A stretch of DNA of 64,000 nucleotides from an uncultured delta proteobacterium (lineage in GTDB: Bacteria; Desulfobacterota; RBG-13-43-22): NCBI GenBank assembly GCA_963790475.1, contig CAWBOS010000013.1, positions 96,001-160,000 of the forward strand, written 5' to 3'. How positions within the stretch are numbered: the first letter of the stretch is position 1; each line of letters begins with the position of its first letter. The position numbers were made by a program, and so were the translations under genes. Below are positions 2,042 through 56,591 of this stretch, one piece after another. The notes below the pieces were generated by a model, which was not told the origin of the DNA, did not search any database, and saw nothing but the letters and a program-made list of their open reading frames with translations.

Positions 2042-3445
2042 CTATCCTCCGTTTATCTGGATTCCGAATTTTTTGACTTTCGTATGAACGGTCTTATAGT
2101 CGACCTGCAATAACCTGGCGGCCCTGGCCTTGTTTCCTCCTGTTACCTTAAGCACTTCCGTGAGAACCTCTTTTTCCACGGCCAGAACGCTCTGTTGAAC
2201 GATTTCAGCTAAAGTTGCATTGTTCCAGGGCCTCCCCTGGACCTTAGGGGAAAAGGCCATCCCCGGCACCGAGACCCGTTTGATACTGAGATCCTTTTCG
2301 GTAATCATTTCCCTGACCACCAGGGTGGCCTGCCGGATTACCGATCGGAGCTGACGGACATTCCCCGGCCAGTTATAAGACATCAATGCCTCCACCGCCG
2401 CTTCGGTGAAACCTTTGACCATCTTTTTCAATTCGATATTGGCCAGATCCAGAAAACGCTTGGCCAGGTAAGGAATATCTTCTTTTCTCTCCCGGAGGGG
2501 GGGAACCGTGATCGTGAACTCGCTCAGACGGTAATATAGATCCTTTCGAAAATTACCGGCAACCATCATTTCCTGGAGGTCCTGATTGGTTGCCAAAATG
2601 AGGCGGATATCCACATCCACGGGTTTGGTCCCACCGACCCGGTAGAGCTTACGGTCCTGGATCACCCGCAGGAACTTTGCCTGGGAACCGGGGGGCATAT
2701 TAGCGATCTCGTCCATGAACAAGGTACCGCCGTGGGTCAATTCGAATTTGCCTAATTTCTGTCGTTCCGCTCCGGTGAACGATCCTTTTTCATGACCAAA
2801 CAGTTCGCTCTCTAACAGGGGTTCGGGGATGGCCCCGCAATCCACCGCCATAAAGGGTGCGTTCTTCCGCTTGCTGTCTTCATGTATGGCCCTGGCCACC
2901 AGTTCTTTTCCCGAGCCTGTCTCACCCATGATGACTACGGAAAAATCTGATTTCGCCACCCGGTGGACATCGGTCACCAGCCGGCCAATCTTGTCGCTGG
3001 GCCCCATGCTCTGGATGAGGCCAAAGTTCCCTTTAAATCCATCTGTTATGGATTCCAAGGTCCTCTTTAGTTGTACTTCCACCAGGACCCGGTGTGTAAT
3101 CCTGACCACCTCGTTATGGTCGAAGGGTTTGGATAAATAATCAAAGGCCCCTAACTTCATGGCCTCCACGGCCTGGTGAATATCGGCATAGGCCGTGACC
3201 AGCACCACCGGCAGATCATCGTCTATTTCTTTGATTTTCTTGAGGACCTCCATGCCGTTGAGACCGGGCATCCGGATATCAAGAAGCACGGCATCCGGGG
3301 TGTCGAAACAGATCTTCTGAATCGCCTGATCCCCGTCAGGGGCGGTGATAACCTCAATTCCTTCCTTTTCCAGGATCTGGGTCAGGATCTTCCGGATTTC
3401 CTCTTCATCATCGACAACCAGGACCCGTCCTAAACGATCAATCAT
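2042..3445 (-). CDS. Sigma54-dependent response regulator (NtrC family)
   Basis: REC (VVDDE, LLDIRMP), GETGSGKE, GSFTGA, LFMDEI, WPGNVRQL, C-terminal Fis HTH. Confidence 0.95.
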   Translation of the reverse strand: MIDRLGRVLVVDDEEEIRKILTQILEKEGIEVITAPDGDQAIQKICFDTPDAVLLDIRMPGLNGMEVLKKIKEIDDDLPVVLVTAYADIHQAVEAMKLGAFDYLSKPFDHNEVVRITHRVLVEVQLKRTLESITDGFKGNFGLIQSMGPSDKIGRLVTDVHRVAKSDFSVVIMGETGSGKELVARAIHEDSKRKNAPFMAVDCGAIPEPLLESELFGHEKGSFTGAERQKLGKFELTHGGTLFMDEIANMPPGSQAKFLRVIQDRKLYRVGGTKPVDVDIRLILATNQDLQEMMVAGNFRKDLYYRLSEFTITVPPLRERKEDIPYLAKRFLDLANIELKKMVKGFTEAAVEALMSYNWPGNVRQLRSVIRQATLVVREMITEKDLSIKRVSVPGMAFSPKVQGRPWNNATLAEIVQQSVLAVEKEVLTEVLKVTGGNKARAARLLQVDYKTVHTKVKKFGIQINGG

Positions 3446-14732: not shown

Positions 14733-15024
14733 TTTCGGATTTCGGATTTCGGAATCCTGCTGCTTGTCTTTCCTAGATCCCCTCTCCCCGATCAGGTCGA
14801 GGACAAGCTTCGCGGGAATGACGGAAAAAAGTCATTCCCCCATTTTTTCCGTCATTCCCACGAAAGTGGGAATCCAGAGGTTTTCATGAATTCTCACTTG
14901 CATATCTCCTCATATAGATCATTCCATTCAGAGTTATGTGCTTCTATAAAATTGCTTCATTTCCCTCCTATACTGGATTCCCGCGTTCGCGAGGAATGAC
15001 GGAGAACATCCGAAATCCGCAATC
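14733..15024. repeat. REP-like palindromes bracketed by inverted 7-mer arrays
   Basis: tttcggatttcggatttcggaat (14733-14755); gtcattcccacgaaagtgggaatccag; ctggattcccgcgttcgcgaggaatgac; atccgaaatccgcaatc (15008-15024). Confidence 0.8.
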
Positions 15025-17968
15025 ACAGGATGTTTTCCATGGCCAGGAGGATCAACTGGACCCGGCCCCCTTCTGCGGGAATCTGCCGGGCGTTCAACAG
15101 CATTCTCCGGTGTCCGATGATGGGAAAGTCGTGCTCCACTTCCATGTTCTCAAAACTGGTATCTTTGGGCAAAACGGTCTCCAGCAGCTCCCTTAACCGG
15201 GGAATATCCCACTGGCGGGCACCCAGGTCAAAAAAACTCCTGCCCACGGTTTCTTCGGGTTTGACCTGAAAGGCCTGGTAAAAAGAGCGGCCGGCGGAGA
15301 TCACCTTGAAATCGCCGTCCAGAATGATCAGGGGCTCCCGGACCGTATCCACAATACTTTGAGCATAGTCTCGGGCCTGCCGGACCTTCTCTTCGATTAT
15401 TTTGATTGCCGTGATGTCGTTAAAAGTCAGCACCACCCCCTGGATCACATTTTCCAGGGTCCGGTAGGGCATAATGCGGACCAGGAACCACTCCTGGCCG
15501 GTCGTCTTTATTTTCAGCTCTCGGGGCACCAACGATTGGAGTACGGCCCGGGCTTCCTCTTCCAGTTCCTCTTTCTCCAGATTGGACTTGATATCGCGTA
15601 AGGGACGGCCGACGTCCGTGCCCACCAGACGAAACACCTTGGCCGCTTCCCGGGTAAATCGTTTTATAACCAGGTTTTCATCCAGGAAGATGGTCCCGAT
15701 ATGGATGTTGTCGATAAGGTTTTTCATGTCGTTCTGCATCCCGGCCAATTGTTCTATTTTGGCCTGAAATTCGGCATTGACGGTCAGTATTTCTTCATTG
15801 ACCGACTGGATCTCCTCCTTGGAGGTCTCCAACTCTTCGTTGGTGGACTGCAACTCTTCATTGGTGGACTGGAGTTCTTCATTGGTGGAGGTGAGTTCTT
15901 CGTTGGCGGCTTGCAGTTCCTCGATGGTGGCCTGAAGATTTTCTTTAGTGTAGGAGAGTTCCTGTTCCAGTTCCAATACTCGGCTGGACCCCCCTTTCCT
16001 GACCATGAGACCGGCCCTGGCCGGCTTTTCTTTGACCTGGGATCCTGCCTCCTGGAAGCTGACCAGCAGTATTCCCTGGTCGATCTCCGGTATGGTGAGA
16101 GGCTTTACAGAAAGGGTAATTCCCTGTTTGCCCCCATCGGTCTTAATCAGGAGATCCTTGCCGACCACCGAGGTTCCCTGCTTGATCGCCTGGTGGATGG
16201 CCGTGCGCAGTTCCAATTGCAGACCCTCGCGGGCCATTTCGATAACATTCAGAGTGGCCTGACCCGGGGCCGGCCGCAGGTATTTACCGGTATCCCCATG
16301 AACAAAGAGGATATTTCCTTTCTCGTCAATAACCACTGATGGGGGCGCGTAGGTCTGGAGCAATATTTGCTCGGTGAGCTCCAACAAATCGGTATCTTTG
16401 GCCTTTTTTATCGGTTCGCCCGGTTCCCTCCGAATCGAGCCCCCTCTCCAGGCCAGCCCCCCTCCGGCCAAACCCTCGCCGGGCGCATTCAGGGATCCCT
16501 TGGCCCGAAAAAACTTCCACTTTTTGTTAATGGGCGCAAAGAGGTCGGTGAAACCCCCGATACTTTCCGAGGAGCTGAGGAAAAGGACCCCTCCCGGTTT
16601 CAAGGCATAATGAAAGACCGGGAAAAGCCGGCCCTGAAGTTCCGATTCGAGGTAGATGAGCAGATTCCGGCAGCTAAGGAGATCCAGTCTGGTGAAAGGC
16701 GGGTCCTTGATCACATTCTGGGTGGCAAAGATGATCATATCCCTTATTTCTTTTTTGATTCGAAAGCCGTCCTCCTCTTTGCTGAAAAACCGTTTCAACC
16801 TCTCCGGGGGAACGTCGATACCGATATTGGCCGGGTAGATACCGGAACGGGCGGAGGTAATCGAATCCTCATCAATGTCCGTACTGTAGATCTGGACCTT
16901 GTACTCCTGCCTGGTCTCATCCATGAACTCCCGGAAGAGGATGGCAATGGAATAGGCTTCCTCACCGGTGGCGCACCCGGGTACCCAGATTCTGAAATAA
17001 TAATTCTCCGGTTTTTGGGCGAAAAGGTCCGGCAGGATATCCTTTTTCAGCACGGCAAAGGCCTCCGGGTCCCGGAAAAAGCTGGTGACATTAATGAGAA
17101 GTTCTTTGAACAGGAGATGCACTTCCGGTGGGCTCTCCTTCAGGAAACGGGCATAGGTATCCGTATCTTCTATGGAGTTGACAGCCATCCGTCGTTCGAT
17201 CCTGCGTCGGATGGTGTTCTGCTTATAGAGGGAAAAGTCATGGCCGGTTCTGGATCTCAAGAGCATCATGATCTTGTTAAGGGCGCTGGTTGGGGGGGAA
17301 ACAGGAGGAGCCGGTTTTATCTTTTTTTCAAAAAAGGTCTTCTTGTAGAACAACAAATGTTCCGGTATCCTTTCCACCGGCAGGATATAAGTGGCCAGCC
17401 CGGCCTGGATGGCGCTGGCGGGCATGCCGTCATACTTGGCCGTAGCCGGATCTTGTACATAAGATACCCCCCCGGCGCCGATAATGGCCCGCAGCCCGAA
17501 GGTGCCATCGGACCCGCTTCCGGAGAGGATAACCCCGATGGCCCTTTCTCCCTGGTCTTCGGCCAGGGAGCGCAGAAAAAAATCTATGGGCATCCGATGG
17601 CCCCGCTGCAATTCCGGAACAGTGATCTGGATGGCCCTGTGAAAGACGGACATGTCCCGGTTCGGGGGAATCACATAGACCCGGTCCGGTGCCACGACCA
17701 TCTGGTCCTGGGCTTCAATGACCGTCATGGTGGTAACTCTTTGCAGGATCTCGGTCAGCATACTGGCGTGCCCCGGATCGAGATGGGAAACCAGGACGAA
17801 AGCCATACCGCTGTCCGGCTTTGTGTGACGGAAAAAATTCTCATAGGCCTCCAACCCTCCGGCCGAGGCCCCCAACCCGATGATGGGAAAGTTGATCTCC
17901 GGTATTGATCTCGACTTTGAATTGAGGGAACCTTCCGACTTCAGGTTATTATGGTTTTTGGTCTTCAC
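15023..17968 (-). CDS. CheB-CheR fusion protein with coiled coil and PAS domains (MAC1-type)
   Basis: CheB triad GASAGG/VSHL/SGSDG; CheR INVTSFFRDP, PGCATGEEAYS, CRNLLIY; heptads (NEELQST)n; C-terminal PAS. Confidence 0.95.
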   Translation of the reverse strand: MKTKNHNNLKSEGSLNSKSRSIPEINFPIIGLGASAGGLEAYENFFRHTKPDSGMAFVLVSHLDPGHASMLTEILQRVTTMTVIEAQDQMVVAPDRVYVIPPNRDMSVFHRAIQITVPELQRGHRMPIDFFLRSLAEDQGERAIGVILSGSGSDGTFGLRAIIGAGGVSYVQDPATAKYDGMPASAIQAGLATYILPVERIPEHLLFYKKTFFEKKIKPAPPVSPPTSALNKIMMLLRSRTGHDFSLYKQNTIRRRIERRMAVNSIEDTDTYARFLKESPPEVHLLFKELLINVTSFFRDPEAFAVLKKDILPDLFAQKPENYYFRIWVPGCATGEEAYSIAILFREFMDETRQEYKVQIYSTDIDEDSITSARSGIYPANIGIDVPPERLKRFFSKEEDGFRIKKEIRDMIIFATQNVIKDPPFTRLDLLSCRNLLIYLESELQGRLFPVFHYALKPGGVLFLSSSESIGGFTDLFAPINKKWKFFRAKGSLNAPGEGLAGGGLAWRGGSIRREPGEPIKKAKDTDLLELTEQILLQTYAPPSVVIDEKGNILFVHGDTGKYLRPAPGQATLNVIEMAREGLQLELRTAIHQAIKQGTSVVGKDLLIKTDGGKQGITLSVKPLTIPEIDQGILLVSFQEAGSQVKEKPARAGLMVRKGGSSRVLELEQELSYTKENLQATIEELQAANEELTSTNEELQSTNEELQSTNEELETSKEEIQSVNEEILTVNAEFQAKIEQLAGMQNDMKNLIDNIHIGTIFLDENLVIKRFTREAAKVFRLVGTDVGRPLRDIKSNLEKEELEEEARAVLQSLVPRELKIKTTGQEWFLVRIMPYRTLENVIQGVVLTFNDITAIKIIEEKVRQARDYAQSIVDTVREPLIILDGDFKVISAGRSFYQAFQVKPEETVGRSFFDLGARQWDIPRLRELLETVLPKDTSFENMEVEHDFPIIGHRRMLLNARQIPAEGGRVQLILLAMENIL

Positions 17969-36129: not shown

Positions 36130-36131
36130 TC

Positions 36132-37388
36132 ATGGATTCGCAAACTCAAAAAGATCTGTTAAACCTATTTCAATCCAAGTTAAACCAGGCCATGAAGTTT
36201 TATCTGGAGACCTGTACCCGTTGCGGGACCTGTACCGAGGCCTGCCACGTCTATGCCTCCATGGGCCAGAACAAATATATCTCTTACTACCGGCATGAAA
36301 TCGTCCGCCGGCTTTATAAAAAATATTTCAAAAGTTCGTTAAACCCCTCGGCTGTCCTGGGGGAATCCAAAGAATTGACTGATATGGCCATGGAGGAACT
36401 CTATGAGGCCGCCTATTCCTGCACGGGCTGCCGCCGCTGCATGGTTTATTGTCCTTACGGCATTGACACCCAGATGCTGATGTCGATTGCCAAGCTCTTA
36501 TTGGTCGGAAACAAATCGGAGCCGGAAATCCTGTCCATGCTGGCCGACATGTCCATTGAGAAGGGGAAGTCGCTGGAGCTGTTCAAGGAGGGTTTTCTCT
36601 CGGCCATAAAAAACCTGGAGTCCCAGGTGGTGGAAAAATGGAAGAGCGAGGCCGGTCAAACCCCTATTCCGGTGGATAGGGAGGGAGCGGATATGCTCTA
36701 TGTCGCCCTGGCCGGGGCGCATTCGATCGTCCCGGCAGCGGCCATCTTTAATGCCGCCAAAGAGAACTGGACCTTGAGTTTTTTTGAGGCCGTCAACTTC
36801 GGGGCTTTTCTCGGCGACCCTTCCCGGACCAAGCTGATCCTGAACCGGATCGTTGATGAGGCTTTGCGTCTCCGGGTCAAAGAGGTCTGTATCTGCGAAT
36901 GCGGAACGGCCTTCCGGGTCATGAAACAGTTGTCCGGAAAACAACCCTTCCGGGTCAGCTCCATCACCGAGGTTCAGGCCCGTTATTTACGGGAGGGACG
37001 GATTAAACTGGACAAGGAAGTCTTCAACAAAGTCCCGGTTACCTATCACGATCCCTGCCAGATCGCCCGCAATGCCGGAGTGATTGATGAGCCCCGCTAC
37101 ATCTTGCGCCAATTGACTGCTGATTTTCGGGATATGACTGATGATGTGCGTTATAATTGGTGCTGCGGCGGCGGCGGCGGTTTGGTCGCCCTGGGGGAGG
37201 ACAACCTGGAATTTCGGATGAAATCGGCCAGGGTCAAGGTGGAGCAGGTCAATAAAACCGGGGCCAAGATTTTGGCCACGGCCTGCGAAAACTGCCATAC
37301 CCAACTCAGCAATCTGAACGACCATTATCAAATGGGCCTGGATGTCCGATTTCTCTCTTCCATGATAGCCGAGGCCCTGGTGGCCTAG
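36132..37388 (+). CDS. DsrK/HdrD/TmcB-like Fe-S oxidoreductase (CCG domain)
   Basis: CTRCGTCTEAC, CTGCRRCMVYCP, YHDPC, CCGGGGG, ACENC. Confidence 0.9.
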   Translation: MDSQTQKDLLNLFQSKLNQAMKFYLETCTRCGTCTEACHVYASMGQNKYISYYRHEIVRRLYKKYFKSSLNPSAVLGESKELTDMAMEELYEAAYSCTGCRRCMVYCPYGIDTQMLMSIAKLLLVGNKSEPEILSMLADMSIEKGKSLELFKEGFLSAIKNLESQVVEKWKSEAGQTPIPVDREGADMLYVALAGAHSIVPAAAIFNAAKENWTLSFFEAVNFGAFLGDPSRTKLILNRIVDEALRLRVKEVCICECGTAFRVMKQLSGKQPFRVSSITEVQARYLREGRIKLDKEVFNKVPVTYHDPCQIARNAGVIDEPRYILRQLTADFRDMTDDVRYNWCCGGGGGLVALGEDNLEFRMKSARVKVEQVNKTGAKILATACENCHTQLSNLNDHYQMGLDVRFLSSMIAEALVA

Positions 37389-37411
37389 ACCGAAAAAAGG
37401 AGAAGAACCTA

Positions 37412-43083: not shown

Positions 43084-44559
43084 ATGCGTTCGGAAACAGA
43101 AAACCAATTTCTTCTAAAAGCCATTGAGGCCTTTAGAACACGCTTGATCGTAATTTCCCCGGAGTTTAAAATTCTGGCGGTCAACGGCGGCTTGGAGGGA
43201 ACCGATAGTTCGAAGATTGTTGGAAGTCTCTGCCACCAGGTCTTTTACGACCGCCCGGAACCCTGCCCCAACTGCGCGGTCCATAGAGCCAGAGAAACCG
43301 GCCTCCCGGCCTTACAGCCAAAACTGGGAGAATTTACCGAGACCAGGGCCATCCCCTGTCTTTATGCCTATCCGGTTTATACTGACAATAAAATTGAAGC
43401 CTTCGTCAGCCTGGATTTCGACCTTCCGGCCCGTAGCGAAATCGAAGTCTCCCTGCAGAGTTCGAATGCCCTGCTGCGCAATCTGATCCTCAGCGCCGTT
43501 GATGGGGTCATTGCCGCCGACAAAAAGGGTCGAATCCTGATTTTCAACGAAATGGCGGCTGAGCTGTTCGGTTACGGCGTGGCCGAAGCCATGGAAAGCT
43601 TAGATATCCGGGACATCTATCCCGATCAAAAAGAGCTGGAGGTCATGAAGGCCCTGCGCAGTGAGGACTACGGCGGACGGGGCAAGCTGCACTCTTTCGA
43701 AGTAGAAGTTATCAATAAGAAGGGGGAACATATCCCTATTGATCTGAATGCTTCCATCGTCTATGAAGGGGATCGGGAAGTGGCCACCATCGGCTTTTTT
43801 CGTGACCAGCGCGGGATCAACCGCATGAAGGAAGAACTGGAAAGGACCCAACTGCAATTACTTCAGTCGGAAAAAATGGCCTCCCTGGGCAAGCTGGCGG
43901 CCGGCGTGGCCCATCAGCTTAATAATCCCTTGTCCGGCATCATCCTGTTCACCCGGTTGGTCCTGGAGGAGTACACCCTGGAAGAGGGCGCCAGAAAGGA
44001 CCTCACCCGGGTCATAGAAGATGCCGAACGCTGCCGGGACACGGTCAAGGAACTGCTGGAATTCGCCCGCCAGACCAAACATATCCGGCGGCCTCACGAT
44101 ATTAACCGGGCCATTTCCCGGACCCTTTTTCTATTGGAAAATCAAACGCTGTTTCAAAACATTGACATTGAAAAGCACCTGGACCCAAATTTACCCCCGG
44201 TGACCGCTGACATCCAACAACTGAACCATATGTTTATGAATATTATTCTAAACGCCGCCCAGGCCATGGAAGGAAAGGGTAATTTAATTATAAGAACCAC
44301 GGCCCTTCCCGAAAAGGAACAGGTCCGCATCGAAATTTCAGATACCGGCCCGGGGATTCCCGACGATATCCTGTCCCATATCTTTGATCCCTTTTTTACC
44401 ACTAAACAAGAGGGAGAAGGGACCGGCTTGGGATTAAGTTTGGTATACGGGATTGTACAAAATCAGGGGGGTGAAATCAAGGTTCAGAGTACCCTGGGTG
44501 AGGGAGCGACCTTCATCATCGACCTGCCCATCATGCCCAAAGCAGACGGAGGAAGCTGA
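43084..44559 (+). CDS. PAS sensor histidine kinase (NtrB-like)
   Basis: Cys-containing PAS CHQVFYDRPEPCPNC, SEKMASLGKLAAGVAHQLNNP, FDPFFTTK. Confidence 0.92.
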   Translation: MRSETENQFLLKAIEAFRTRLIVISPEFKILAVNGGLEGTDSSKIVGSLCHQVFYDRPEPCPNCAVHRARETGLPALQPKLGEFTETRAIPCLYAYPVYTDNKIEAFVSLDFDLPARSEIEVSLQSSNALLRNLILSAVDGVIAADKKGRILIFNEMAAELFGYGVAEAMESLDIRDIYPDQKELEVMKALRSEDYGGRGKLHSFEVEVINKKGEHIPIDLNASIVYEGDREVATIGFFRDQRGINRMKEELERTQLQLLQSEKMASLGKLAAGVAHQLNNPLSGIILFTRLVLEEYTLEEGARKDLTRVIEDAERCRDTVKELLEFARQTKHIRRPHDINRAISRTLFLLENQTLFQNIDIEKHLDPNLPPVTADIQQLNHMFMNIILNAAQAMEGKGNLIIRTTALPEKEQVRIEISDTGPGIPDDILSHIFDPFFTTKQEGEGTGLGLSLVYGIVQNQGGEIKVQSTLGEGATFIIDLPIMPKADGGS

Positions 44560-44560
44560 A

Positions 44561-46053
44561 GTGAATAAGGAGCTCGAGGGAATACGGATTCTGGTAGTGG
44601 ACGACGAACGGGATATCCGCGATGCTTCGGAGCGTATTCTGAGCCGCGTCGGTTTTCAATTGGTTACCGCCAAACGCGGAGAGGAAGCCCTCCAGGTCTT
44701 TCAGGAGGCGCACCCGGCCATCGTGCTCCTTGACTTAAAGATGCCCGGCATGGACGGCATGGAGGTTCTTAAGCGCCTCCGGGAAGGGGACCCTTCCATT
44801 CTGGTGATTGTCATTACCGGTTACGCCACGGTGGAAACAGCCATTGAAGCCATGAAGCAGGGCGCCTATGATTTCATCCCCAAGCCTTTCGAACCGGATC
44901 AGCTGCGTATTGTGGTCAATCGGGCGGCTGAAAAAATCCGCCTGACCCGGGAAGCCAAAAAACTGGAACAGGAAAAAGCCCGCACCATGTCCGATTTGGA
45001 CACCGAAAAAAGCCGCTTGCGGACGATCATCGAATCGCTGCCGGATGGGGTTATGGTCACCAACACCAGCGGACAGGTGGTGCTGATCAATCCCTCCTGC
45101 AAACAGATGCTGAAACTGGACCCCGACACCGCACCGGGCCGGCCTATTCAAGAGTATGTAGCGGATGAAGCCTTGTGCAATCTGGGTCTGGATATATCCA
45201 AAGGAAAATATGTGGATTACGGGGATATCCCCGAGCAGGAGTTCGCCCTGACCGATGGAACCTATCCTGCGGGCCATGGCCCTGCCGGTCTTGGGAGAAC
45301 GAAAGGAATGCCTGGGAGCGATCATCAATTTCATCGACATCACTTCCATGAAGGCCCTCGATCGGCTGAAGTCGGAGTTTGTGGCCAAAGTCTCCCATGA
45401 ATTGCGTTCACCCCTTTCCACCATCCATGAACAGATCGCCATAGTCGTTGGCGACCTGGTGAGCAGCCAGCCCCAACAGCACCAACACCTGCTGGCCCGG
45501 GCCAAGGAAAAAACCCAGGGGTTGATCTCTTTGATCGGTGATCTGCTCGACTTATCGCGGATTGAGGAAGGGAATCACCAGCCGGGAGCCGAAACCGATC
45601 CGGGTGGACGAACTGTTGAAAAATATCGTCGATTTTCTTTCCACCAGGGCCTCGGCCAAAAAACAATCCCTGACCCTTGAGGTTCTATCCCGGGACCTGC
45701 CGGAAATCAAGGCCGATCCCCTGGCCCTGGAAAGCATTTTCGGAAATCTGATCACCAATGCCATCACCTATACCCAGGAAGGAGGCTGCATTCGAGTTGA
45801 ATTGGACCGGGCCGGCATCAATATCCGGGTCAAAGTAGTGGACAACGGCTTCGGTATTGCCGAAAAATATATCGACAAAATTTTCGATCGCTTTTACCGG
45901 GTTAAGGATGAAAGAACCCGCTATATCACCGGGACCGGGCTGGGGCTTCCCATTGTCAAAGGCCTGGTGGATTCTTTGGGCGGGATCATCGAGGTGACCA
46001 GTACCCCTGGGGAGGGATCGACCTTCACCGTTCTGCTTCCGGTCCAACAGTGA
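44561..46053 (+). CDS. Hybrid sensor kinase REC-PAS-HisKA-HATPase (two +1 frameshifts near 45267 and 45571)
   Basis: Three ORF pieces join into a paralogue of 40983-42500 (VSHELRSP, NLITNAITYT, GTGLGL). Confidence 0.85.
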
Positions 46054-46061: not shown

Positions 46062-46881
46062 TTAGGCGTTATCCCGTAAAGCGTTTAGAAACTCCTCCGG
46101 AGGAACCTGCAATCCGGTCCACAAGGCAAAGGCCCTTCGGGCCTGGTAGGCCAGGGCCGACAACCCGTCCATAAACCGAATGTCTTTGGACCGGGCCAGC
46201 TCTTCCCAAAAATTTCTTTGGCGGCCGTAATTAAGATCAAAAACCAACCGGCATCCCGGGAGATCAAGACTGCTCACCAGATCGGCCATTTCCGGAGATT
46301 CATCACGGCTGGAAACTGATGTGGCATTGACTACAATATCTACGGGGAGCGGGCCTTCGGGGAAGGACGACAAATCCAGCGGCTCCCCACCCAAGTGTCT
46401 CAATAAGGGCCTTTGTTTTATCCATATTGCGTCCGGCGACATAGATGGTAGCCGCCCGCAGCCAGTTTAAAATAAACACCACCGCCCTGGCCACCCCGCC
46501 GGTTCCAAAAACTAAGGCCACTTTCCCGTCCACCTCGAATCCCGCTTCGTTGAGCGCATCCATGACGCCGATGGCATTCGTATTGTATCCCTTCAAACGA
46601 TCCCCGTCCCGAACAACGGTATTAACCGCTCCGATGATGTTGGCGCCCTCGGAAAGGACATCCAACAAAGGGAGCACGGCTTCCTTGTAGGGGACGGTGA
46701 TGTTGGCCCCGGCCATGTGCAGGATCCGGATACTTTGAATGGCCTGTCCCAGGTCCTGGGGTTTGACGACGAAGGGGACATAGGTCCCATTAATGCCCTG
46801 ACGTTTCAGGACCCGGGAAAACATAATCGGAGATTTCGATTGTCCCGCCCGTTCGTCACTCAGAATACAAAAAACTTTCAT
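46062..46881 (-). CDS. aroE: Shikimate dehydrogenase-family protein (+1 frameshift near 46398)
   Basis: SKSP, GANITVPYK, GAVNT, GTGGVARA, VNATS, FDLNY, DGLSALAYQA. Confidence 0.85.
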
Positions 46882-46992
46882 CGTAATTATCCGGGGAAAG
46901 GATTCAAGGGTAATAGTTCGGAGTTCGAAGTAACATCTTATTGCCGAATCATAAATCCAACAACTCCGAACTCCCAACTCTGAGCTTCTTTA

Positions 46993-47385
46993 TTACAGCC
47001 CCAGCAGCCTTTTCAGGCTTTTGGTGATTTCTTCGGCCGAGGCCGGTTTGCTGATGTAGTCATCGGCTTCAGTGGACATACCGTCGTAATGGGAGTAGCG
47101 TGTGGAGGTCACATGGGAGGCTACCGCCGTCAGCAGGATAATGGGGATGTCACGGTATCGGTCATCCTTTTTGAGTTCTTTGCAGACCTCGTACCCGTCT
47201 TTTTCAGGCATCATCACATCCAGCACAATGGCATCAGGCGGATTGGAGCGCACCTTTTCCAGACCCTCCACCCCGTTATAAGCCACCTCAACCTTGAAGC
47301 CCTCTTTTTCCAAATTACCCTGGACGATGATAGCGAAGTCCGGTTCATCGTCTACAACTAAGACCCTCTTTTGCTGGTTCATCAT
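46993..47385 (-). CDS. Single-domain response regulator
   Basis: VVDDEP, LDVMMP, LLTAV, ISKP. Confidence 0.92.
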   Translation of the reverse strand: MMNQQKRVLVVDDEPDFAIIVQGNLEKEGFKVEVAYNGVEGLEKVRSNPPDAIVLDVMMPEKDGYEVCKELKKDDRYRDIPIILLTAVASHVTSTRYSHYDGMSTEADDYISKPASAEEITKSLKRLLGL

Positions 47386-47433: not shown

Positions 47434-48366
47434 TTATTCAACCGTCGGTCTCGGAAACAAGCCTGACCTTTCCACGATTTCCGGGACCATCTCCTCCCAT
47501 TCGATAGCCATGATGTGAAATCCGGCCACCCCTTTTACTCCTTTAAGGCGCTGGATGGACTCAACGCAGATTTTGATCCCCTCTTCGGCCTGTTTTTCTT
47601 TGGGTGTGTCCGCCAGGCGCTTGACAACAGCATCCGGCACGTCCATACCGGGCACCCGGTTTTTCATGTAGCGGGCCATCCCGGCTGATTTCATCGGGGT
47701 CAACCCGGCCAAAATATAAACCTGCTCGGTCAACCCCCGGTCCCGGGCTTTGCTCAGCCAGTCTTCAAATTTGTCCAGATTATAGATGCATTGGGTCTGG
47801 ATAAACTCGGCCCCGGCGGCCACTTTCTTGGCCAACCGCGGTACACGGATTTCGTAGGGGTCGGCAAAGGGATTAGCCGCTGCTCCGACGAACATCTGCG
47901 GAGGCCGGCTGATGGCATCACCTCCCAGAAACTTGCCTTCGTCGCGCATATGTCTGACGGTCTGGACCAGCTGCAGCGAGTCGATGTCGTGGACGTTCTG
48001 TCCCTGGGCACAGTCCCCGAAACTCTGATGATCTCCTGAAAGGCAGAGGATATTGTGGATGTCGAATGAGGCCGCGCCCAGAATGTCGCTTTGGAGGGCG
48101 ATCCGGTTCCGATCCCGGGTCACCATCTGCAAAACGGGTTCCAGCCCCATCAACTTCAGTCGAATACAGGCGGCCAGACTGCACAAACGGGTCATGGAGG
48201 TCTGGTTGTCGGTCACATTGATGGCATCAACATGGTTCTTAATCATTTCCGCCTTGCGAGTAATCACCTCAGGGTCACTGCCGCGAGGGGGACCGCATTC
48301 GGAGGTGACGGCCATCTTTCCGGAAGCCAAAATTTTTTCCAGTTTGCTCGGTGTCTTGGCCTTCAT
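47434..48366 (-). CDS. metF: Methylenetetrahydrofolate reductase
   Basis: ECGPPRG, AINVTDN, RDRNRIALQSD, LSGDH, IQTQ. Confidence 0.93.
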   Translation of the reverse strand: MKAKTPSKLEKILASGKMAVTSECGPPRGSDPEVITRKAEMIKNHVDAINVTDNQTSMTRLCSLAACIRLKLMGLEPVLQMVTRDRNRIALQSDILGAASFDIHNILCLSGDHQSFGDCAQGQNVHDIDSLQLVQTVRHMRDEGKFLGGDAISRPPQMFVGAAANPFADPYEIRVPRLAKKVAAGAEFIQTQCIYNLDKFEDWLSKARDRGLTEQVYILAGLTPMKSAGMARYMKNRVPGMDVPDAVVKRLADTPKEKQAEEGIKICVESIQRLKGVKGVAGFHIMAIEWEEMVPEIVERSGLFPRPTVE

Positions 48367-49031
48367 AGCTTCAAATCCTCCCTGACGACTTTTCGCGGTC
48401 CGCCGGCCCGGTCGGTGGACCAGTTCTTGATTGGGGTCAGTTTTTCATAGTCATCCATCCGCCCCAGGGCCTTCAGCCGGTCGATGATCAACTGCCAGGC
48501 GCAGGGGACCTCTTTGCTGATTTCACATTTTCCGGCCGTAGACCCGCCGCAGGGCCCGTTCAGGATCCGCTTGGCGCAGCGGGAAACCGGACAGATGCCG
48601 CCTGAAATGGCCAGCAGACACTGGCCGCAACCCTGGCAGCGTTCGGACCAGACCCCCCTGGCCTCGTTGGCCCCCATGAACAGGGTGTTCACCCCGGGGT
48701 AAACCGGTTTGGTCTGGTACTTTTCGGCGGTGAATTGAACCCCGACCCCACAGGCAATAGACAACACCGCCTCATAGTGATCGAGGCTGTCCCGGATCTC
48801 TTCCAGGTACTCATGATCACACTGCCGCTCCAGGGTCCGTTCCCCGATGTTCACTTCCCGCCCCTGCTGCAGGAAATGCATGCGCAAGGCCGAGGCCAGA
48901 AGGCCCACTTCTTTCTTCCCGCCGACCTCGCAAACCGTTACGCATTCATTACATCCCAAGACCAGGACGCTCTGGCAGTCTTTGACGTAATCAATGATTT
49001 CTTCTATCGGCTTTTTATCGGCCACAATCAT
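48363..49031 (-). CDS. metV: MTHFR small Fe-S/Zn subunit
   Basis: GCNECVTVC, RQCD, ACGVG, CQGCGQC, CPVSRCAKRILNGPCGG, CAW; stop overlaps the metF start. Confidence 0.9.
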   Translation of the reverse strand: MIVADKKPIEEIIDYVKDCQSVLVLGCNECVTVCEVGGKKEVGLLASALRMHFLQQGREVNIGERTLERQCDHEYLEEIRDSLDHYEAVLSIACGVGVQFTAEKYQTKPVYPGVNTLFMGANEARGVWSERCQGCGQCLLAISGGICPVSRCAKRILNGPCGGSTAGKCEISKEVPCAWQLIIDRLKALGRMDDYEKLTPIKNWSTDRAGGPRKVVREDLKL

Positions 49032-49079
49032 CGCTTTTGACCTCCATTTCTGATTGTTTCGCAGGTTTCATTAATCTGC

Positions 49080-49553
49080 TTAAAGGGTTACACCAGCGGC
49101 CTCTTTCTGATCCTGCCGGATTTTTTTCAGTTTTTTCAAGACCCCTCGAATCGGATTCGGGCCGGCTTCAAGAATTCGGGCGTGCATTTCCTCGGCAAAC
49201 CGGGCGAACAGGGGACCATCGCTGGAAGACAGGTTGAACATCTGCAATCGATGGCCGCCGATACCGATGGCGTCCAGGGTTTTCCGGATTTGCTCCACCC
49301 GGGCCTTGGCCCTGAAATTGCCTTTTTCGTAATGGCAGTCCCCTTCGCGGCATCCCACCAAATAAACCCCGTCGGCCCCCTTCTCAAAGGATCGCATCAG
49401 ATGCAGGGCATCGACTTTTCCGGTGCAGGGAACGCGAATAATCTTTATGGACGAAGGATAACCCAAGCGCATCGAACCTGCCAGGTCCGCAGCCGTGTAT
49501 CCTCAGAAATTACAGCAGAAGGCGATGATGATCGGCTTAAAATCTTGGCTCAT
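49080..49553 (-). CDS. mvhD: MvhD/FlpD [2Fe-2S] subunit, selenoprotein (Sec at codon 17)
   Basis: [19 protein letters not shown](49503-49505)-GYTAADLAG..VPCTGK..GCREGDCHY; ATG overlaps the hdrA stop (ATGA). Confidence 0.9.
49474..49488 (-). promoter_or_regulatory. Putative bacterial SECIS of mvhD
   Basis: GGACCU-GGC-AGGUUC hairpin starting 14 nt 3' of the UGA. Confidence 0.65.
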
Positions 49554-52500
49554 AGGGCCCCCTCCAATAAAGTGTCGATCTTACATAAAAGCTGATCGTC
49601 TTCATACCAGTTGAGTTCGATGGCCTTGGCCGGGCATTCAGCGGCACAGATCCCGCACCCGTGGCACAGGGCCTCATCGATTTCACTGAACCCTTCGGCA
49701 TTGATCTTGGGCACGCCGTAAGGACAGGACCTGACACAGATAAGGCAAGCCGCGCACAAATCGGTCTGAACCTGGGCGGTTACGGCCGATAGGGTCAGTT
49801 CTTTCCGGGAAAGGAAGGTGGTGGCCCGGGAGGCCGCGGCTTGGGCCTGGGCGATGGTTTCGTTCATCAGTTTCGGGCTGTGGGCCGCTTCCGCAAATAA
49901 AGATCCCTTCGGTGGCCATGTCCACCGGACGCAGTTTGACATGGGCTTCCATAAAGTACCCTTCGGCGGTCCGGGCCAGCTTGACGATTGAAGCCAGTTC
50001 TTCGGTATCCGCCGCCACCATCCCGGCACTTAAGCCCAGAAGGTCGACCTTGACCTGCATATTTCGACCCAGGACATGGTCCCTGAAATTTACCACCAGT
50101 CCTTCTTCAACCTGTTCCACCTGGGGAGGGGTTTCCGGGTCGAAGCGGAAGAAGACCACCCCTTTTTCCCGGGCTTCTTTATAATAGGTTTCCAGCAATC
50201 CATAGGTGCGGATATCGCGGTAAAAAATGAATACCTCGGCCTCGGGATTGAGATTTTTTATTTTAAGGGCGTTCTTGATGGCACTTTGACAACAGATGCG
50301 CGAACAATTGGGGTTTTCCTCGTTCCGGGATCCGACACACTGGATCATGGCCACCTGGTTCAGATCTTGGGCCCCTTTTTCTTTGAGACGTTTGGCCAGC
50401 TCAACCTGAGTCATGACTTTTTCGCTTTGACCGTAGAGATATTCCCGGGGTTGATATTCGGAAGCCCCGGTGGCAATCAGGGTCACCCCGTGATTGATCT
50501 TGCGCTGGTACGGGCCCGGTCCGACGAGTAGCTCGGTGGTGAAGTTTCCCTGGAAACCGGTAAATCCGACTACTAAAGCCTGGGTCAGTACCTGAATCAG
50601 GGGATGGGTGGTCACCCGTTCTACCAGACCTTGCAGATAGGTCTGAATATCATCTCCTTCAATAGTAAAGGTCAGACGGTTGGCCATGCCCCCCAATTGT
50701 TTTTCCTTCTCAACCAACACCACCTCATATCCCTGATCAGCCAGTCCCAGGGCGGCATTCATTCCCGGCCACCCCGCCGCCGATAACCAAGGCGCGTTGG
50801 TTGACGGTGATGACCTTCTCCCGCAGCGGGCTAAGGCTTCCGGCCCGCGAGACGGCCATACGGATCAGTTCCCGGGCCTTATCGGTGGCCTCCCGGGGAT
50901 CGTCCGAGTGGACCCAGGAATCCTGGTTGCGGATGTTGGCCATTTCCAGGAGGTACTTATTTAAGCCGCAACTCTGGAGGGTATCCATAAAGATGCCCTC
51001 ATGGGTTTTCGGGGTACAGGCGGCCACCACCACCCGGTTGAGCCGGTGCTCCCGAATACTTTCTTTCATGATTTCCAAGGAATCCTGACTGCAGGAAAAA
51101 AGGTTCTGCCGGGCATAGACCACGTTGGGCAGGCTTCGGGCAAAGGCCTCCGCCTCGGCCACATCCACGACTCCGGCGATATTGATACCGCAGTTGCAGA
51201 CATAGACCCCGATGCGTGGTTCTTCGTCCGCGACCTCGATTTCCTGGGGAAGGTCAAGGGTTCTGGTGCGTGTGTTTCGGACATTGGCCAATTTTACCCC
51301 GGCCAGGCAAGCCGCGGCACTGGCCTCGGTAACCGAACCGGGGATATCCTTGGGTCCCTGAAACACGCCGCAGGCATAGACGCCCGCACGGGAGGTCTCT
51401 ATGGGCGCAAAGGTCGATGTCTTGACAAAGCCGTATCCATCCAGCTCCACATCGAGCCTCCGGGCCAGATCCTTGGAAGATTCCGGCACCTGGAGGCCCA
51501 CGGACAGGACGATCAGGTCAAAGAATTCTTCTTTAACCTCGCCGTCTTCATCCACATAGCGGATATGCAGATCCCGGTCTCCGGCGATTTCGTCAAAGGA
51601 GTGAACCCGGGACCTTGATGAAGCGCACGCCGGCCTTGTCTCTGGCCCGCAGATAGATATTTTTCGTAGTCCTTTCCGAAGGTACGAATATCCATGTTGA
51701 AAATGGCACAATCCAAATCTCCCTTGGCATGCTCCTTGGCCATCATGGCATCCTTGATGGCGTACATACAGCATACCGAGGAGCAATAGCTGTTCCCGCA
51801 GTGATTGGTGTCCCTGGACCCGATGCATTGAAACCAGGCGATTTTTTTCGGCTCTTTTCCGTCGGAGGGACGGATCAGGTGCCCCTGGGTCGGGCCGGAA
51901 GCGCTCAGGATTCTCTCGAATTCCAGACTGGTCAGGACATTGGGATTTCTGTGGTATTGATAAAGCTCTTCCAGAGGGGAAGGGTCATAGGGCCGGCTGC
52001 CGGTAGCCAAAACAACCGAACCGATCTCGATTTCCTTTTCCATCACCGTCTGATCATGGTCCACGGCTTGGGCCAGACAGGCCTCGACACACTGGTAGCA
52101 TTCGGAGCAAATACCGCATTTCAGACATCGGCGGGCTTCCTGTTGTGAATCGCTTTCCTGATAACCCAGTTGAACCTCATTGAAGTTTTGGATGCGTTGA
52201 TCGGCCGGGGCCTGAGACATCCGGGTTCGCGCTTGAAGAATCTGCCCCTCGGTTGGAACATCAATAACAGCTTCCCAATGTTTCGGTCGCCCCTGGCGCA
52301 GATCGCGGCCCTGGAGAAAGCGGTCAATGGAAAGGGCCGCTTCTTTGCCGGCCCCGATGGCCTCCACTACGGTCCGCGGTCCGCTGACCGCATCCCCGCC
52401 GGCAAAGATATCCCGGTCGTCGGACTGTAAGGTTACCGGATCGACCCGGATGGTCCCCCAATCATTTAGCTTACAGGCGCACTCTTCGGTCAGGCAGGTC

Positions 52501-54032
52501 CAATCGGACTCCTGGCCGATGGCCGGAATAACGGCATCGACTTCGATGATAAATTCACTGCCGGGGATCGGTTCCGGGCGGCGGCGCCCGCTTTGATCCG
52601 GCTCACCCAGGGCCATTCGGATACATTCTATGGCCTTGACCCGACCGGCTTCGGCTATCACCCGTACCGGATTGGTCAGGGTCATGATCTCGATTCCCTC
52701 GGCCTGGCATTCTTCAATCTCTTCGGCATTGGCCGGCATCTCTTCCAGACTGCGCCGGTAGATAATGAAAGGATGGGCGCTGCCGGTGCGCAGGGCGGTG
52801 CGCACCGCATCCATGGCCACATTACCGCCACCGACCACCGCCACCCGGTCTCCCAGTTTGATCCGGTTGCCGAGATTGACTTCCCGGAGGAAGTCGAGAC
52901 CCGGATAGACCCCCGGCAGATCTTCCCCTTCGATGCCCAGGGCCTTGCAGGCCTGGGATCCGATCCCCAGAAAGAAGGCCCCATACCCCTGATGGCGCAG
53001 TTGGCCGATAGTAAAATCCTTGCCGATCTCCAGCCCGGTTTTGAACTCCACACCCAGATCACGGATGGTCTGGATTTCCGCTTCGATGATGTTACGAGGC
53101 AACCGGTAGGCGGGAATACCAACGGTCAACATTCCCCCCAGAACGGGCAGTTTTTCAAAAACCGTGACCGCATATCCCTCTATGGCCAGAAAGTAGGCGC
53201 AGGTCAAACCGGCCGGTCCGGCGCCGATGATGGCCACCTTTTCCGGTCTGGGTTCTTTTTTCTGAGGCAAAAAGGGAGGGCCGCTTTTCTGGTCCCAGTC
53301 GGCCAAGAACCGGTGGAGATTCATGATCGCCAATGGTTCATCGACCGACTGGCGGGTGCAGGCCGCTTCGCAAGGGTGATGACAAACCCGTCCGCAAACA
53401 CCGGGAAAAGGATGGTCTTTTTTAAAAAGCTCCATGGCCTCCCGGTATTTTTCGGTGTTCATAAGGGCAATATACCCCTGAACACTCACATGAGCCGGAC
53501 AAGTAACCCGGCAGGGGGCGTTTCCACGCTTGCTGATGGCATATCCACCGGGAATCGCCTGGGGATATTTTTTAAAGGCGGCCTTGCGCTTGGATAGACC
53601 TTGATCATATTCGTTGGGCAGCTCTATGGGGCAGACCTTGCTGCATTCACCGCAGCTGGTGCATTTGGATAAGTCCACGAAGCGGGGCTGTTGCCGGAGT
53701 CGGGCCTTGAAAAGACCCTGCTCTCCATCCAATCCCAGGACTTCGGTATTAGTCAGAATTTCGATGTTCAGATGCCGGCCGACCTCGACCAGTTTAGGCG
53801 AGATAATTCACATGGCGCAGTCATTGGTGGGAAAGGTCTTATCCAACTGAGACATCAATCCGCCGATGGCCGATGAGTGCTCGACCAGGTAGACATAGTA
53901 CCCGGAATTGGCCAGGTCCAGTGCTGATTGCATTCCGGCGATGCCTCCCCCGACCACCATGACCGCCCCGACGAAACTTGGTCCTTCGCTCACGACCGCA
54001 GGTGTTAGGCCTTTTTTGGTTTTCGATTCCAT
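49550..54032 (-). CDS. hdrA: Large HdrA-like flavoprotein (HdrL type, inserted GltD-like NAD(P)H domain), selenoprotein; four +1 frameshifts near 51656, 51613, 50763 and 49889
   Basis: [21 protein letters not shown](53808-53810)-IISPKL; GAGPAG and GGGNVAMD (GltD-like); QCIGSRD..CSSVCC; QCVGSR..CSRICC; C-terminal 2x[4Fe-4S]. Confidence 0.9.
53775..53792 (-). promoter_or_regulatory. Putative bacterial SECIS of hdrA
   Basis: CUGGUCG-AGGU-CGGCCGG hairpin starting 15 nt 3' of the UGA. Confidence 0.65.
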
Positions 54033-54044
54033 TTTACCTTCCCT

Positions 54045-54917
54045 CTAAATCCCTTCGATGATTTCCGGCAGTTTATGTCTCCCATCCCAGAGTGGAAAGA
54101 TAGGCGCCGCTGTACCCCTGATTCTTGAGTTCCCTAACCGTTTCCGCTGCAATCCTGGACACACTCGCGCACCTTGTCCGGTGCCCGGTCAATCCGGTCT
54201 ATAACGGCTTCCGGTATATGAATATGGGGCAGGTTACGGAGGATGTATCGGGCCATCCCCAACGGACTTGAGCAGCATGACCGTGGGAATAATGGCCACC
54301 TTTCGGAGATCGATCCTTTTTTGGTACGGTTCGAGCAAAGATAAGTCGAAGAGGGGGGAAGTGACGAAAAAGCGCGCCCCGGCCTCGACCTTTTTCATCA
54401 TCTCTTCCACTTCCATCTCCGTCGATTTTCCCTTGGATCCGGCATCGGCGGTGGAACCGATAAAAAAGTCCGGTGCACCCCTGAGTTCGATGCCGGCCAT
54501 ATCCCGACCTTTGTTGAGCCGGTCGATGGCCCTAATCAACTCGATGAGGTCGATATCAAATACCGAACGGGCCTGGTGATGATCCCCGAAGCTGAGATCT
54601 TCACCGCCGACCGCCATGACGGTGGTGATCCCCAGGGCGTGGGCCGCCAGTAAATCACCCTGAATAGCCAAACGGTTTCGGTCCCGGCAGCACACCTGAA
54701 ATACCGTCGGCAGATCTTCGTTCTGCAAGACCATGGCCCCTCCCAGGGAACTCATTCGCATGACGGCATTACTCATCTCCGGCACAACGAAGGCATCGAT
54801 CCCCTCTTTGACTCTTTTGGCATTGGACAGCATGTCAGAGACATCCACCCCTTTTGGTGGTTCCATTTCTGCCAAAACAATAAATTCTCCCGCCTCGATT
54901 TTGTCCTTTAACCCCAT
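54045..54917 (-). CDS. Second, divergent MetF-like protein (+1 frameshifts near 54257, 54158 and 54078)
   Basis: EMEPPKG, CRDRNRLAIQGD; corrected C-terminus GMARYILRNLPHIHIPEAVIDRI..TLGWEHKLPEIIEGI*. Confidence 0.8.
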
Positions 54918-54999: not shown

Positions 55000-55015
55000 A
55001 ACAAAAAGTGTGCCA
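55000..55015 (-). promoter_or_regulatory. Putative sigma54 (-24/-12) promoter of the metF-hdrA operon
   Basis: TGGCAC-ACTTT-TTGTT; the -12 has GT instead of GC. A divergent sigma54 activator is adjacent. Confidence 0.55.
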
Positions 55016-55220: not shown

Positions 55221-56591
55221 ATTTCAGCCCGGATATTGATTGTCGACGATGACTGGGATTTTCTTGAATTAATGAAAGCGCGGTTGGCCGGGGCCGGTTT
55301 TCAACAGGTGCGCATCGAGGATGATCCCTTAAAGGCAGCGGAAATGATACAAGCGGAAGAGGTCTTCGACATCGCTCTGATAGATATAACCATGCCGGAA
55401 ATGGACGGACTTCAGTTGCTGGACATGGTCAAGAACAACAGCCCCAGGACCGAGTGCATCATGGTTACCGCGGTGAACGATGTGCGGGTGGCTGTCCAGT
55501 GTATCAGAAAAGGGGCCTACGATTATTTAGTCAAACCGATCAGTGAAGAGGACCTTGTCTTTTCCCTCAGGCGGACCCTCGAAAAAAAGCGGCTTCTCGA
55601 AATTCTGGACATTGAAAAAAGCAAGGTCTTGCCGGTTCTGTCCCACCCCGAGGCCTTCCAATCCATCAGTACACGGTCTCCTTCCATGATGCGCTTGCTC
55701 AAAGAGGCCGAATTGCACGCCGGCAGCGATGTGCCTATTCTGATTACCGGGGAAAGCGGCACCGGCAAAGAACTTCTGGCCCGGGCGATTCACGCGGTAA
55801 GCCCCCGCGCCCGTTACCCCTTTATGCCGGTCAACATGGCGGCGATCAATCCCGGTCTCTTCGAGGCTGAATTTTTCGGCCATACCCGGGGCGCTTTTAC
55901 CGGCGCTGAAAAAGAGCGGGCCGGATATTTGAAGCATGCCAATCATGGCACCTTGTTTCTGGATGAGATCGGGAATCTCCCTCTGGAAATGCAAGGAAAA
56001 TTATTAAGGGTACTCCAGGATGGTGAATATACCCCTTTAGGATCCAGTGTCGCTCAAAAAGTCGATGTGCGGTTTGTGACCGCCACCAATGAAAACCTGG
56101 AAATGCTGATATCCGGGAAAAACTTTCGCAAGGACCTGTACTATCGAATCCGGGGAGGCTGGCTGCACCTGCCGCCGTTACGGGAAAGACCGGAAGACAT
56201 CCCCCTGCTGGTAGACCGTTTTCTGGATGAATACCGGAATGGAGGACCGCACTGTCATTTAGAAGAAGAGGCCTTTAAACTTCTCTGCCAATACGACTAC
56301 CCCGGTAACATCAGGGAACTGAAATCCATCATCCAGTCTGCCGTAAATCTCGCCCAGGGGGAAGCCATTACTTCCAGCATGTTCCCGGCTCCCTTGCGGG
56401 AGATTCCGCTCATCTTTCCTGTAGAACCGCAAAGGGAGTCTACCGCCATCATCCCCCTTTCCGAATATGAAAGGGCCTATATCATTAAAGTCTACCGGCA
56501 GCTACACCAGAATAAATCTCAAACTTCCCGCCTTCTGGGAATAGGGATGAACACCCTGCGACGAAAATTGAAATCCTTTAATATCCCATGA
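55221..56591 (+). CDS. Sigma54-dependent response regulator (NtrC family)
   Basis: REC, GESGTGKE, GAFTGA, LFLDEI, YPGNIREL, HTH. Start is ATT 55221 after GGAGG, or TTG 55236. Confidence 0.93.
   Translation: MSARILIVDDDWDFLELMKARLAGAGFQQVRIEDDPLKAAEMIQAEEVFDIALIDITMPEMDGLQLLDMVKNNSPRTECIMVTAVNDVRVAVQCIRKGAYDYLVKPISEEDLVFSLRRTLEKKRLLEILDIEKSKVLPVLSHPEAFQSISTRSPSMMRLLKEAELHAGSDVPILITGESGTGKELLARAIHAVSPRARYPFMPVNMAAINPGLFEAEFFGHTRGAFTGAEKERAGYLKHANHGTLFLDEIGNLPLEMQGKLLRVLQDGEYTPLGSSVAQKVDVRFVTATNENLEMLISGKNFRKDLYYRIRGGWLHLPPLRERPEDIPLLVDRFLDEYRNGGPHCHLEEEAFKLLCQYDYPGNIRELKSIIQSAVNLAQGEAITSSMFPAPLREIPLIFPVEPQRESTAIIPLSEYERAYIIKVYRQLHQNKSQTSRLLGIGMNTLRRKLKSFNIP

Follow-up and report, generated by a model that had tools for sequence, protein, structure and literature searches.

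The 64,000-nucleotide (nt) stretch of DNA analyzed here (hereafter the window; contig CAWBOS010000013.1, positions 96,001 to 160,000, from an uncultured delta proteobacterium) holds a minus-strand operon whose predicted products are a large HdrA-like protein (HdrL), MvhD, MetV, MetF and a second, divergent MetF (MetF′, encoded by the gene that we call metF-like). We propose that this locus encodes an intact, conditionally expressed oxidoreductase complex of the MetFV kind, linked to proteins of the heterodisulfide reductase (Hdr) type, acting on methylene- and methyl-tetrahydrofolate (THF) in the confurcating direction and controlled by a divergent sigma-54 response regulator, with a receiver gene at the end of the operon, a reading to which we assign a probability of roughly 0.55. 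HdrL is already known, and so are both of the selenocysteine (Sec) sites described below, which stand here in a new protein context; the combination of HdrL-MvhD with MetV-MetF plus a second MetF is apparently not described in the literature searched, with the reservation that the hdrL locus maps of PMC2702500 may already show hdrL beside metF.

A first-pass annotation, made from the sequence alone, had placed five genes on the minus strand here, and open reading frames (ORFs) together with Pfam matches bear out the position of each. Its account of the extent of the unit holds for these five genes but overlooked two conserved regulatory genes, so that the layout is as follows.

54917..54045, minus strand: metF-like, encoding MetF′ (PF02219 at 74.6 bits, cut-off 24; 289 amino acids (aa) in relatives)
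54032..49550, minus strand: hdrL, about 1491 codons (Pyr_redox_2, Fer4_20 and Fer4 by Pfam)
49553..49080, minus strand: mvhD (FlpD family, 155.9 bits by Pfam)
49031..48363, minus strand: metV (PF12225 C-terminal domain, 126 bits; 13 invariant cysteines among 45 orthologs)
48366..47434, minus strand: metF (PF02219, 129.5 bits)
46993..47385, minus strand: single-domain response-regulator receiver by Pfam, 48 nt past metF and probably the last gene of the operon
55236..56591, plus strand, divergent from the operon: sigma-54-dependent response regulator by Pfam (receiver, AAA+ sigma-54 activator and Fis-type helix-turn-helix)

Direct reading of the sequence confirms the overlapping stop and start codons that had been claimed for hdrL/mvhD and metV/metF, which take the form ATGA in both cases. 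MetF carries the motifs VTDN, SGD and QTQ and its gene adjoins metV, identifying it as a methylene-THF reductase (MTHFR) of the MetFV type. Neither hdrBC nor hydrogenase genes were found among the 40 window ORFs scanned outside the operon, as the first-pass annotation had stated for the adjacent genes, and the operon itself holds no HdrB or HdrC gene; unlinked copies of these occur in the genome. The nearest gene with a CCG domain is DsrK-like and lies at 36132..37388, on the opposite strand to the operon.

In the present assembly hdrL is spread over four frames and metF-like over three, and these seven frameshifts within 5.4 kb of the window would fit a decaying cluster of pseudogenes. Alignment with five relatives, which carries out the indel correction asked for in the first-pass annotation, resolves all seven as 1-nt insertions, three in metF-like (near 54262, 54155 and 54078) and four in hdrL (near 51657, 51613, 50766 and 49886), each missing in all five relatives. 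Public contigs of four runs have one letter fewer at all seven sites wherever a covering contig was listed, evidence that is not fully independent, as the run holding most of the stretch may be near the source sample; two X1 contigs, which differ at 1 other letter in about 200 nt, are without the three metF-like insertions. Parts of the stretch that no contig covered count neither way. The hdrL orthologs in three relatives are open across 1496 codons, with a single TGA. Because like insertions (at 45266, 45570 and 46396) also split a histidine-kinase gene (44453..46053) and aroE (46977..46062), the frameshifts are assembly errors rather than gene decay, the error rate here being about one 1-nt insertion per kb. 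The operon genes are intact in nature; decay of the cluster is so improbable that we regard it as ruled out, and frameshifts in this genome should not be taken as gene loss.

A pattern scan for relatives of the metF-like protein gave 451 places in species genomes, and the best 80 of these, one of them identical to the query, were analyzed as related loci. Almost all of the 80 are metagenome-assembled genomes (MAGs) labelled Desulfobacterales or Deltaproteobacteria; in a search for a cultured host, no named type strain appeared among the matches listed. In 77 of the 80 loci metF-like is followed directly by hdrL, the other three having less than 140 nt of flank, and of the 51 loci that extend at least 7.6 kb downstream, 45 contain the complete set of five genes, the exceptions being L049, L056, L059, L065, L086 and L088. 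Across the 80 loci HdrB matched once, HdrC never and Fhs never, indicating that the lack of adjacent HdrBC seen in the window is a conserved property of the module. Two variant arrangements were noted. In L056, L065, L086 and L088, metF-like and an hdrL of about 50% identity are followed by an mvhD of the Cys type, after which a short hdrA and another mvhD stand in tandem; L033, L038, L078 and L090 hold two hdrL-mvhD-metV-metF operons back to back, with metF-like heading only one of them and a sigma-54 regulator between the two.

HdrL had been described as an HdrA of about 1490 codons with two HdrA-type halves and an inserted GltD-like NAD(P)H domain, an architecture that the internal repeat, Pfam and structure matches all support. 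The repeat pairs residues 30-112 with about 1086-1170 (38%) and residues 665-894 with about 1173-1386 (29%). In the intact ortholog L011 (1491 codons), the first 166 residues correspond to the thioredoxin-reductase-like portion of HdrA structures, after which residues ~171-650 match NfnB/GltD-type NAD(P)H flavoproteins (e.g., 5jca_L, E 2e-94; Pfam Fer4_20 and Pyr_redox_2 at residues ~171-575). HdrA resumes at residues 642-910, and a second, nearly complete HdrA occupies residues 936-1490, so that a partial HdrA half, an NfnB/GltD-like insert and a full HdrA half follow one another; the HdrA matches to 5odc_A reach E 1e-182. The available part of PMC2702500 (Strittmatter 2009) defines HdrL by the same plan, an HdrA-like protein of large size fused to a glutamate-synthase/NADH-binding domain, with mvhD as the next gene.

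The claim that two of these proteins, HdrL and MvhD, are selenoproteins is borne out by the features below and by their conservation.

53810..53808, minus strand: hdrL Sec codon TGA, codon 75, the only in-frame TGA of hdrL, aligned with Cys197 of 5odc_A
53775..53792, minus strand: hairpin CUGGUCG-AGGU-CGGCCGG resembling a Sec insertion sequence (SECIS), 18 nt past the hdrL UGA
49505..49503, minus strand: mvhD Sec codon TGA, codon 17, the sole in-frame TGA, aligned with a Cys in 7bkb_F and a non-standard X in 9sfi_K
49474..49488, minus strand: SECIS-like hairpin GGACC-UGGCA-GGUUC, past the mvhD UGA

Over the 80 related loci, codon 75 of hdrL is a stop in 75, a gap in one and not covered in four; codon 17 of mvhD is a stop in 52, Cys in four and not covered in 24. 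Where the codon itself could be located it is TGA in every case (75/75 at the hdrL site and 55/55 at the mvhD site). Positions 19-38 after the U of the hdrL UGA are invariant among 53 unique sequences, third codon positions included, whereas third positions flanking the hairpin region do vary; in mvhD, positions 16-26 are invariant among 51 unique sequences. Since the stems never vary (20 and 11 invariant positions), there are no compensatory changes to count. The genome also has a tRNA-Sec gene, on contig C6, and selB (390.6 bits, cut-off 242), completing for both genes the set of a TGA at a homolog's Cys site, a conserved downstream hairpin and the tRNA-Sec and SelB machinery.

The predicted structure of MetF′ is an MTHFR barrel (AlphaFold2 mean predicted local distance difference test (pLDDT) 90.2), whose closest fold is that of Thermus MTHFR (template-modeling score 0.76, 18% identity), and its Pfam membership agrees. 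Compared with MetF, it has VPEM for VTDN, G-E/Q-D for SGD and ITS/TPP for QTQ, and a differing loop in place of AANPFAD; the "PEM in place of the TDN motif" noted in the first-pass annotation is thus correct. It retains the Glu equivalent to E. coli Glu28, which is invariant, and the RDRNR segment of MetFV-type enzymes. Among 45 family sequences 57 columns are invariant and the altered motifs are themselves conserved, with a mean column identity of 77% against 88% for MetF. MetF′ lacks the features expected of a catalytic MTHFR, namely VTYG/VTDN, which we take to be the flavin-site motif, and the equivalents of Asp120 and of Gln183; for Asp120 and Glu28 the role assigned here follows the titles of PDB entries. 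Judged by its sequence, MetF′ is a constrained paralog of the MTHFR fold with changed flavin and folate motifs, and it is probably not a flavin-dependent catalytic subunit of the ordinary kind.

When MetF, MetV and MetF′ were co-folded as three chains, the interface measure ipSAE came to 0.90, against 0.29 for the best control. In the calibration, which is only rough here because custom alignments were used, 58 of 80 solved complexes reached the pass mark, as did 2 of 110 mismatched pairs. The runs had at least 90% of contacts in common, and the partners had pLDDT values of at least 88. The confident contacts were between MetF′ and MetF only, in a pseudo-symmetric arrangement centered on the RDRNR segment that the two share; no confident contact of MetF′ with MetV was seen in this co-fold, which is not evidence against one. 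No solved structure of MetV or of a MetFV-type enzyme was found by sequence search. The model supports, without showing, a MetF/MetF′ heterodimer and, with the altered active-site motifs, fits the earlier suggestion that the divergent MetF is a structural or alternative subunit.

Of the features that mark type IV MTHFRs, the module has a MetFV-type MetF adjoining MetV and, in the same cluster, MvhD and HdrA; its closest known relative is the MetFV-HdrABC-MvhD complex of Moorella thermoacetica, a type also found in Sporomusa ovata. With that complex it shares an operon that joins overlapping metV and metF to the genes for MvhD and for a flavoprotein of the HdrA type, as well as MetFV-type motifs and a Wood-Ljungdahl pathway role, as far as the available parts of PMC8760232 and PMC5861303 describe it. 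Unlike the Moorella cluster, it lacks adjacent HdrB and HdrC, and it has instead a fused double HdrA with an NfnB-like insert, MetF′, a dedicated regulator pair, Sec in HdrL and MvhD, and a sulfate reducer as host. HdrL-MvhD of Desulfobacterium autotrophicum HRM2 and HdrABC/HdrL of Syntrophobacter fumaroxidans are also similar, in that mvhD follows the gene for a large HdrA-like protein whose NADH domain resembles glutamate synthase, and some copies are likewise selenoproteins; in the available parts of the two papers, in contrast, HdrL is tied to dsrABC, fdh or hdrABC and not to metV-metF plus a second metF (PMC2702500, PMC5947623). Two MetF genes in one Hdr-linked cluster recur in the hdrABC-mvhD-metVF cluster of the deep-sea Chloroflexi DscP3, but there each MetF is of the ordinary kind and paired with a MetV of its own, and the cluster includes HdrBC (PMC5736913, in the part available). 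The metF-like gene here has no metV of its own. Canonical MTHFR (E. coli or Thermus MetF) and MetF′ share the TIM-barrel fold and the Glu28 equivalent and differ in VPEM for VTDN/VTYG, in G-E/Q-D for SGD/RGD at the Asp120 position and in ITS/TPP for QTQ/ITQ. Both Sec codons coincide exactly with Sec/Cys sites of methanogen HdrA and VhuD/MvhD; unlike in methanogens, they lie here in a bacterial HdrL fusion tied to folate chemistry rather than to heterodisulfide reduction.

From homology we infer every step of the following electron path. NAD(P)H would exchange electrons at the flavin adenine dinucleotide (FAD) of the NfnB-like module in HdrL, from which iron-sulfur (Fe-S) clusters would lead to the HdrA-type FAD. 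One branch would then run from the [2Fe-2S] cluster of MvhD over the Fe-S clusters of MetV to the flavin of MetF and methylene- or methyl-THF, and the other through the ferredoxin-like domains of HdrA to ferredoxin. In an acetate-oxidizing sulfate reducer the complex would work by confurcation, methyl-THF and reduced ferredoxin together reducing NAD(P)+, a direction that we favor because of the gene set of the organism and the thermodynamic argument in the available part of PMC6295475, a paper that has already put forward confurcation as a route of methyl-THF oxidation in other organisms. The NAD(P)H/ferredoxin bifurcation by a "self-contained" complex that had been suggested for this locus is a hypothesis, plausible on these homologies. 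In the same reading, MetF′ would stand in for one of the two MetF chains of a (MetVF)2-type dimer, giving an asymmetric complex on the fused HdrA pseudo-dimer.

The setting of the module agrees with such a role. The genome contains dsrAB and cdhC and therefore belongs to an organism that reduces sulfate or sulfite and possesses the acetyl-CoA pathway. In the survey of co-occurrence with acs/cdh that the first-pass annotation had proposed, metF-like was found in 60 of 301 sampled genomes of the phylum and CdhC in 203; CdhC was present in 54 of the 60 genomes with metF-like and in 149 of the 241 without it, so that the module sits mostly in CdhC genomes, an association rather than a test, given that kin are not independent; the cross-tabulation was made by hand. 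The order and class to which the window belongs, with 18 and 15 genomes only, are uninformative on this point.

The regulatory genes are conserved as well. The sigma-54 response regulator was matched in 69 of the 80 related loci, nearly always as a full-length protein, 60-87% identical, encoded divergently upstream (the matches in L059, 36%, and L060, a 76-aa piece, are weak), and the single-domain receiver, 75-97% identical, lies on the same strand just past metF in 47 of the 80, with two weak matches elsewhere. The conserved regulator and receiver genes point to conditional use of the operon. A search of sequencing runs listed no RNA run containing the stretch, which counts neither for nor against expression. 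Upstream of metF-like there is one element of the corresponding promoter type.

55015..55000, minus strand: sigma-54 -24/-12-like element TGGCAC-N5-TTGT, which precedes the start of metF-like by about 85-100 nt, with one mismatch to the consensus

Of 77 related loci, 22 carry a strict form of the motif in the 250 nt upstream, as against none of 70 control windows. Two copies of a palindrome-like sequence, GCCATAATGGC, lie upstream of the sigma-54-like promoter at 55117-55203, with a half-site at the promoter itself; these elements may be binding sites of the divergent regulator.

Several observations weigh against the proposed confurcating complex. Among the precedents, ferredoxin use by the Moorella complex is not demonstrated in the available parts of PMC8760232 and PMC6295475, and the Sporomusa ovata complex is reported as membrane-linked (PMC9430772). 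Six genomes with metF-like showed no CdhC (G001, G007, G109, G133, G155 and G269), and the 41 matches to the CCG domain in the genome make an unlinked partner of the HdrBC or DsrK type possible. Window-wide, the sigma-54-like motif occurs 18 times against 22.5 expected, which is not above chance, and the copy before metF-like carries its mismatch. MetVF of Clostridium ljungdahlii is a dimer of heterodimers that contains flavin mononucleotide (PMC8760232, in the part available), and the co-fold may therefore pass through the likeness of MetF′ to a self-dimerizing MetF, close cousins passing in the calibration too. Finally, at least one further MetFV-type MetF lies outside the metF-like cluster in each of five other genomes checked, and the genome considered here has, besides an E. 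coli-type metF on contig C5, four further MetV-MetF loci.

Contig C15, 531000-546000 (L017): an nfnAB-like pair divergent to fhs-hdrL-mvhD-metV-metF, with Cys at the Sec site of HdrL and TGA in mvhD; probably the core locus of the Wood-Ljungdahl methyl branch
Contig C10, 27000-46999 (L018): a branched-chain-type ATP-binding cassette (ABC) transporter, then hdrL-mvhD-metV and a divergent metF (VSDN, TGD and VSHP motifs)
Contig C12, 1332000-1351999 (L016): a cluster headed by another metF-like gene (39% identical), with a double HdrA of 1039 aa that lacks the NfnB insert, then mvhD, metV and metF
Contig C11: metV-metF

The module may therefore not carry the main flux of the pathway, and it can no longer be regarded as the sole or obvious core Wood-Ljungdahl reductase of the genome, one of the other loci being linked to fhs. 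The idea of a Sec/Cys isoenzyme pair, with Sec at the present locus and Cys at the fhs-linked one, is weakened by the TGA in mvhD on C15. On C12, hdrB and hdrC lie about 5 kb off on the other strand, and the two-MetF layout recurs there with another fused HdrA. Farther downstream on C10 are genes for a Fer4 protein, an HdrB-like CCG protein, the glycine-cleavage H protein (gcvH) and an FAD-oxidase/CCG fusion, the pairing of HdrB-like protein and GcvH being reminiscent of lipoate-linked Hdr-like systems.

The fhs-linked locus and the extra MetF copies in the other genomes lend some weight to the reading that the module is a specialized, inducible paralog outside core acetyl-CoA oxidation (serving, for example, autotrophic CO2 reduction or methylated substrates), with the fhs-linked locus as the housekeeping enzyme. 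The conserved regulator pair and the promoter-like motif point the same way, but nothing substrate-specific, such as a methyltransferase or transporter gene, is conserved next to the module, and we think this reading possible though doubtful; it concerns the timing of use and is compatible with the mechanism proposed above. A dependence on a partner encoded elsewhere (an HdrBC- or DsrK-type CCG protein, DsrC or a membrane anchor) would link methyl-THF oxidation to sulfite reduction or the quinone pool instead of ferredoxin. The 41 CCG-domain matches, a DsrM-like and DsrK-like pair 10 kb away in the window, the role proposed for HdrL of D. autotrophicum and S. fumaroxidans as an electron source for sulfite reduction or DsrC (PMC2702500 and PMC5947623, in the parts available) and the membrane link reported for S. 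ovata would all fit; however, no CCG gene is conserved at the module, where the conserved neighbors are regulators only, and we judge such a dependence unlikely.

It is also conceivable, though quite improbable in our estimate, that the complex is a plain NAD(P)H:methylene-THF oxidoreductase that does not bifurcate, with HdrL serving as a wire to MetV and MetF and with no ferredoxin branch. HdrL does have its own NfnB-like NAD(P)H module, and the RnfC2-MetVF enzyme of Acetobacterium woodii, the model for such a complex, reduces methylene-THF with NADH alone (PMC8760232, in the part available). Built from two HdrA-type modules and MvhD, with two conserved Sec sites, such a wire would nevertheless be costly. 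Reduction of NAD+ by methyl-THF is uphill, as the available part of PMC6295475 argues, and the present organism has the gene set of an acetyl-CoA oxidizer. Extending the confurcating complex that we favor, we can tentatively picture a five-subunit bifurcating reductase free of HdrBC, in which the HdrL pseudo-dimer would bind a single MvhD-MetV-MetF arm, a silent or re-purposed MetF′ would cap the dimer face of MetF, and methyl-THF, NAD(P)(H) and ferredoxin would be coupled with no heterodisulfide-type partner, under a two-component sigma-54 circuit of its own and in hundreds of sulfate-reducer species; taken as a whole this picture has the odds against it.

Neither for acetogens nor for acetate-oxidizing sulfate reducers is there a settled account of how the methyl-THF/methylene-THF step (about -200 mV) connects to the redox carriers of the cell. 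The module offers a defined alternative, carrying no HdrBC but an NAD(P)H site of its own, a pair of conserved selenocysteines and an additional subunit of the MetF type, and is a testable candidate for electron balancing during acetate oxidation by sulfate reducers. It is also a concrete target for purification and electron cryo-microscopy, and its genes form a marker set for the metabolic reading of sediment metagenomes.

Elsewhere in the window, a DsrE-like gene, a DsrM-like membrane subunit (Nitrate_red_gam), a DsrK/HdrD-like Fer4-CCG protein and an FmdE-zinc-finger protein are encoded together at 34548-38399. Signaling genes are unusually dense at 1-18000 and 40953-46053, with several PAS histidine kinases and a GGDEF protein, and include a second sigma-54 regulator at 3445..2042 and a CheB-CheR-PAS fusion of 981 aa at 17968..15023. 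At the far end, 62990-64000, an open-ended ORF encodes a TIR domain, TPR repeats and an Lcl C-terminal domain.

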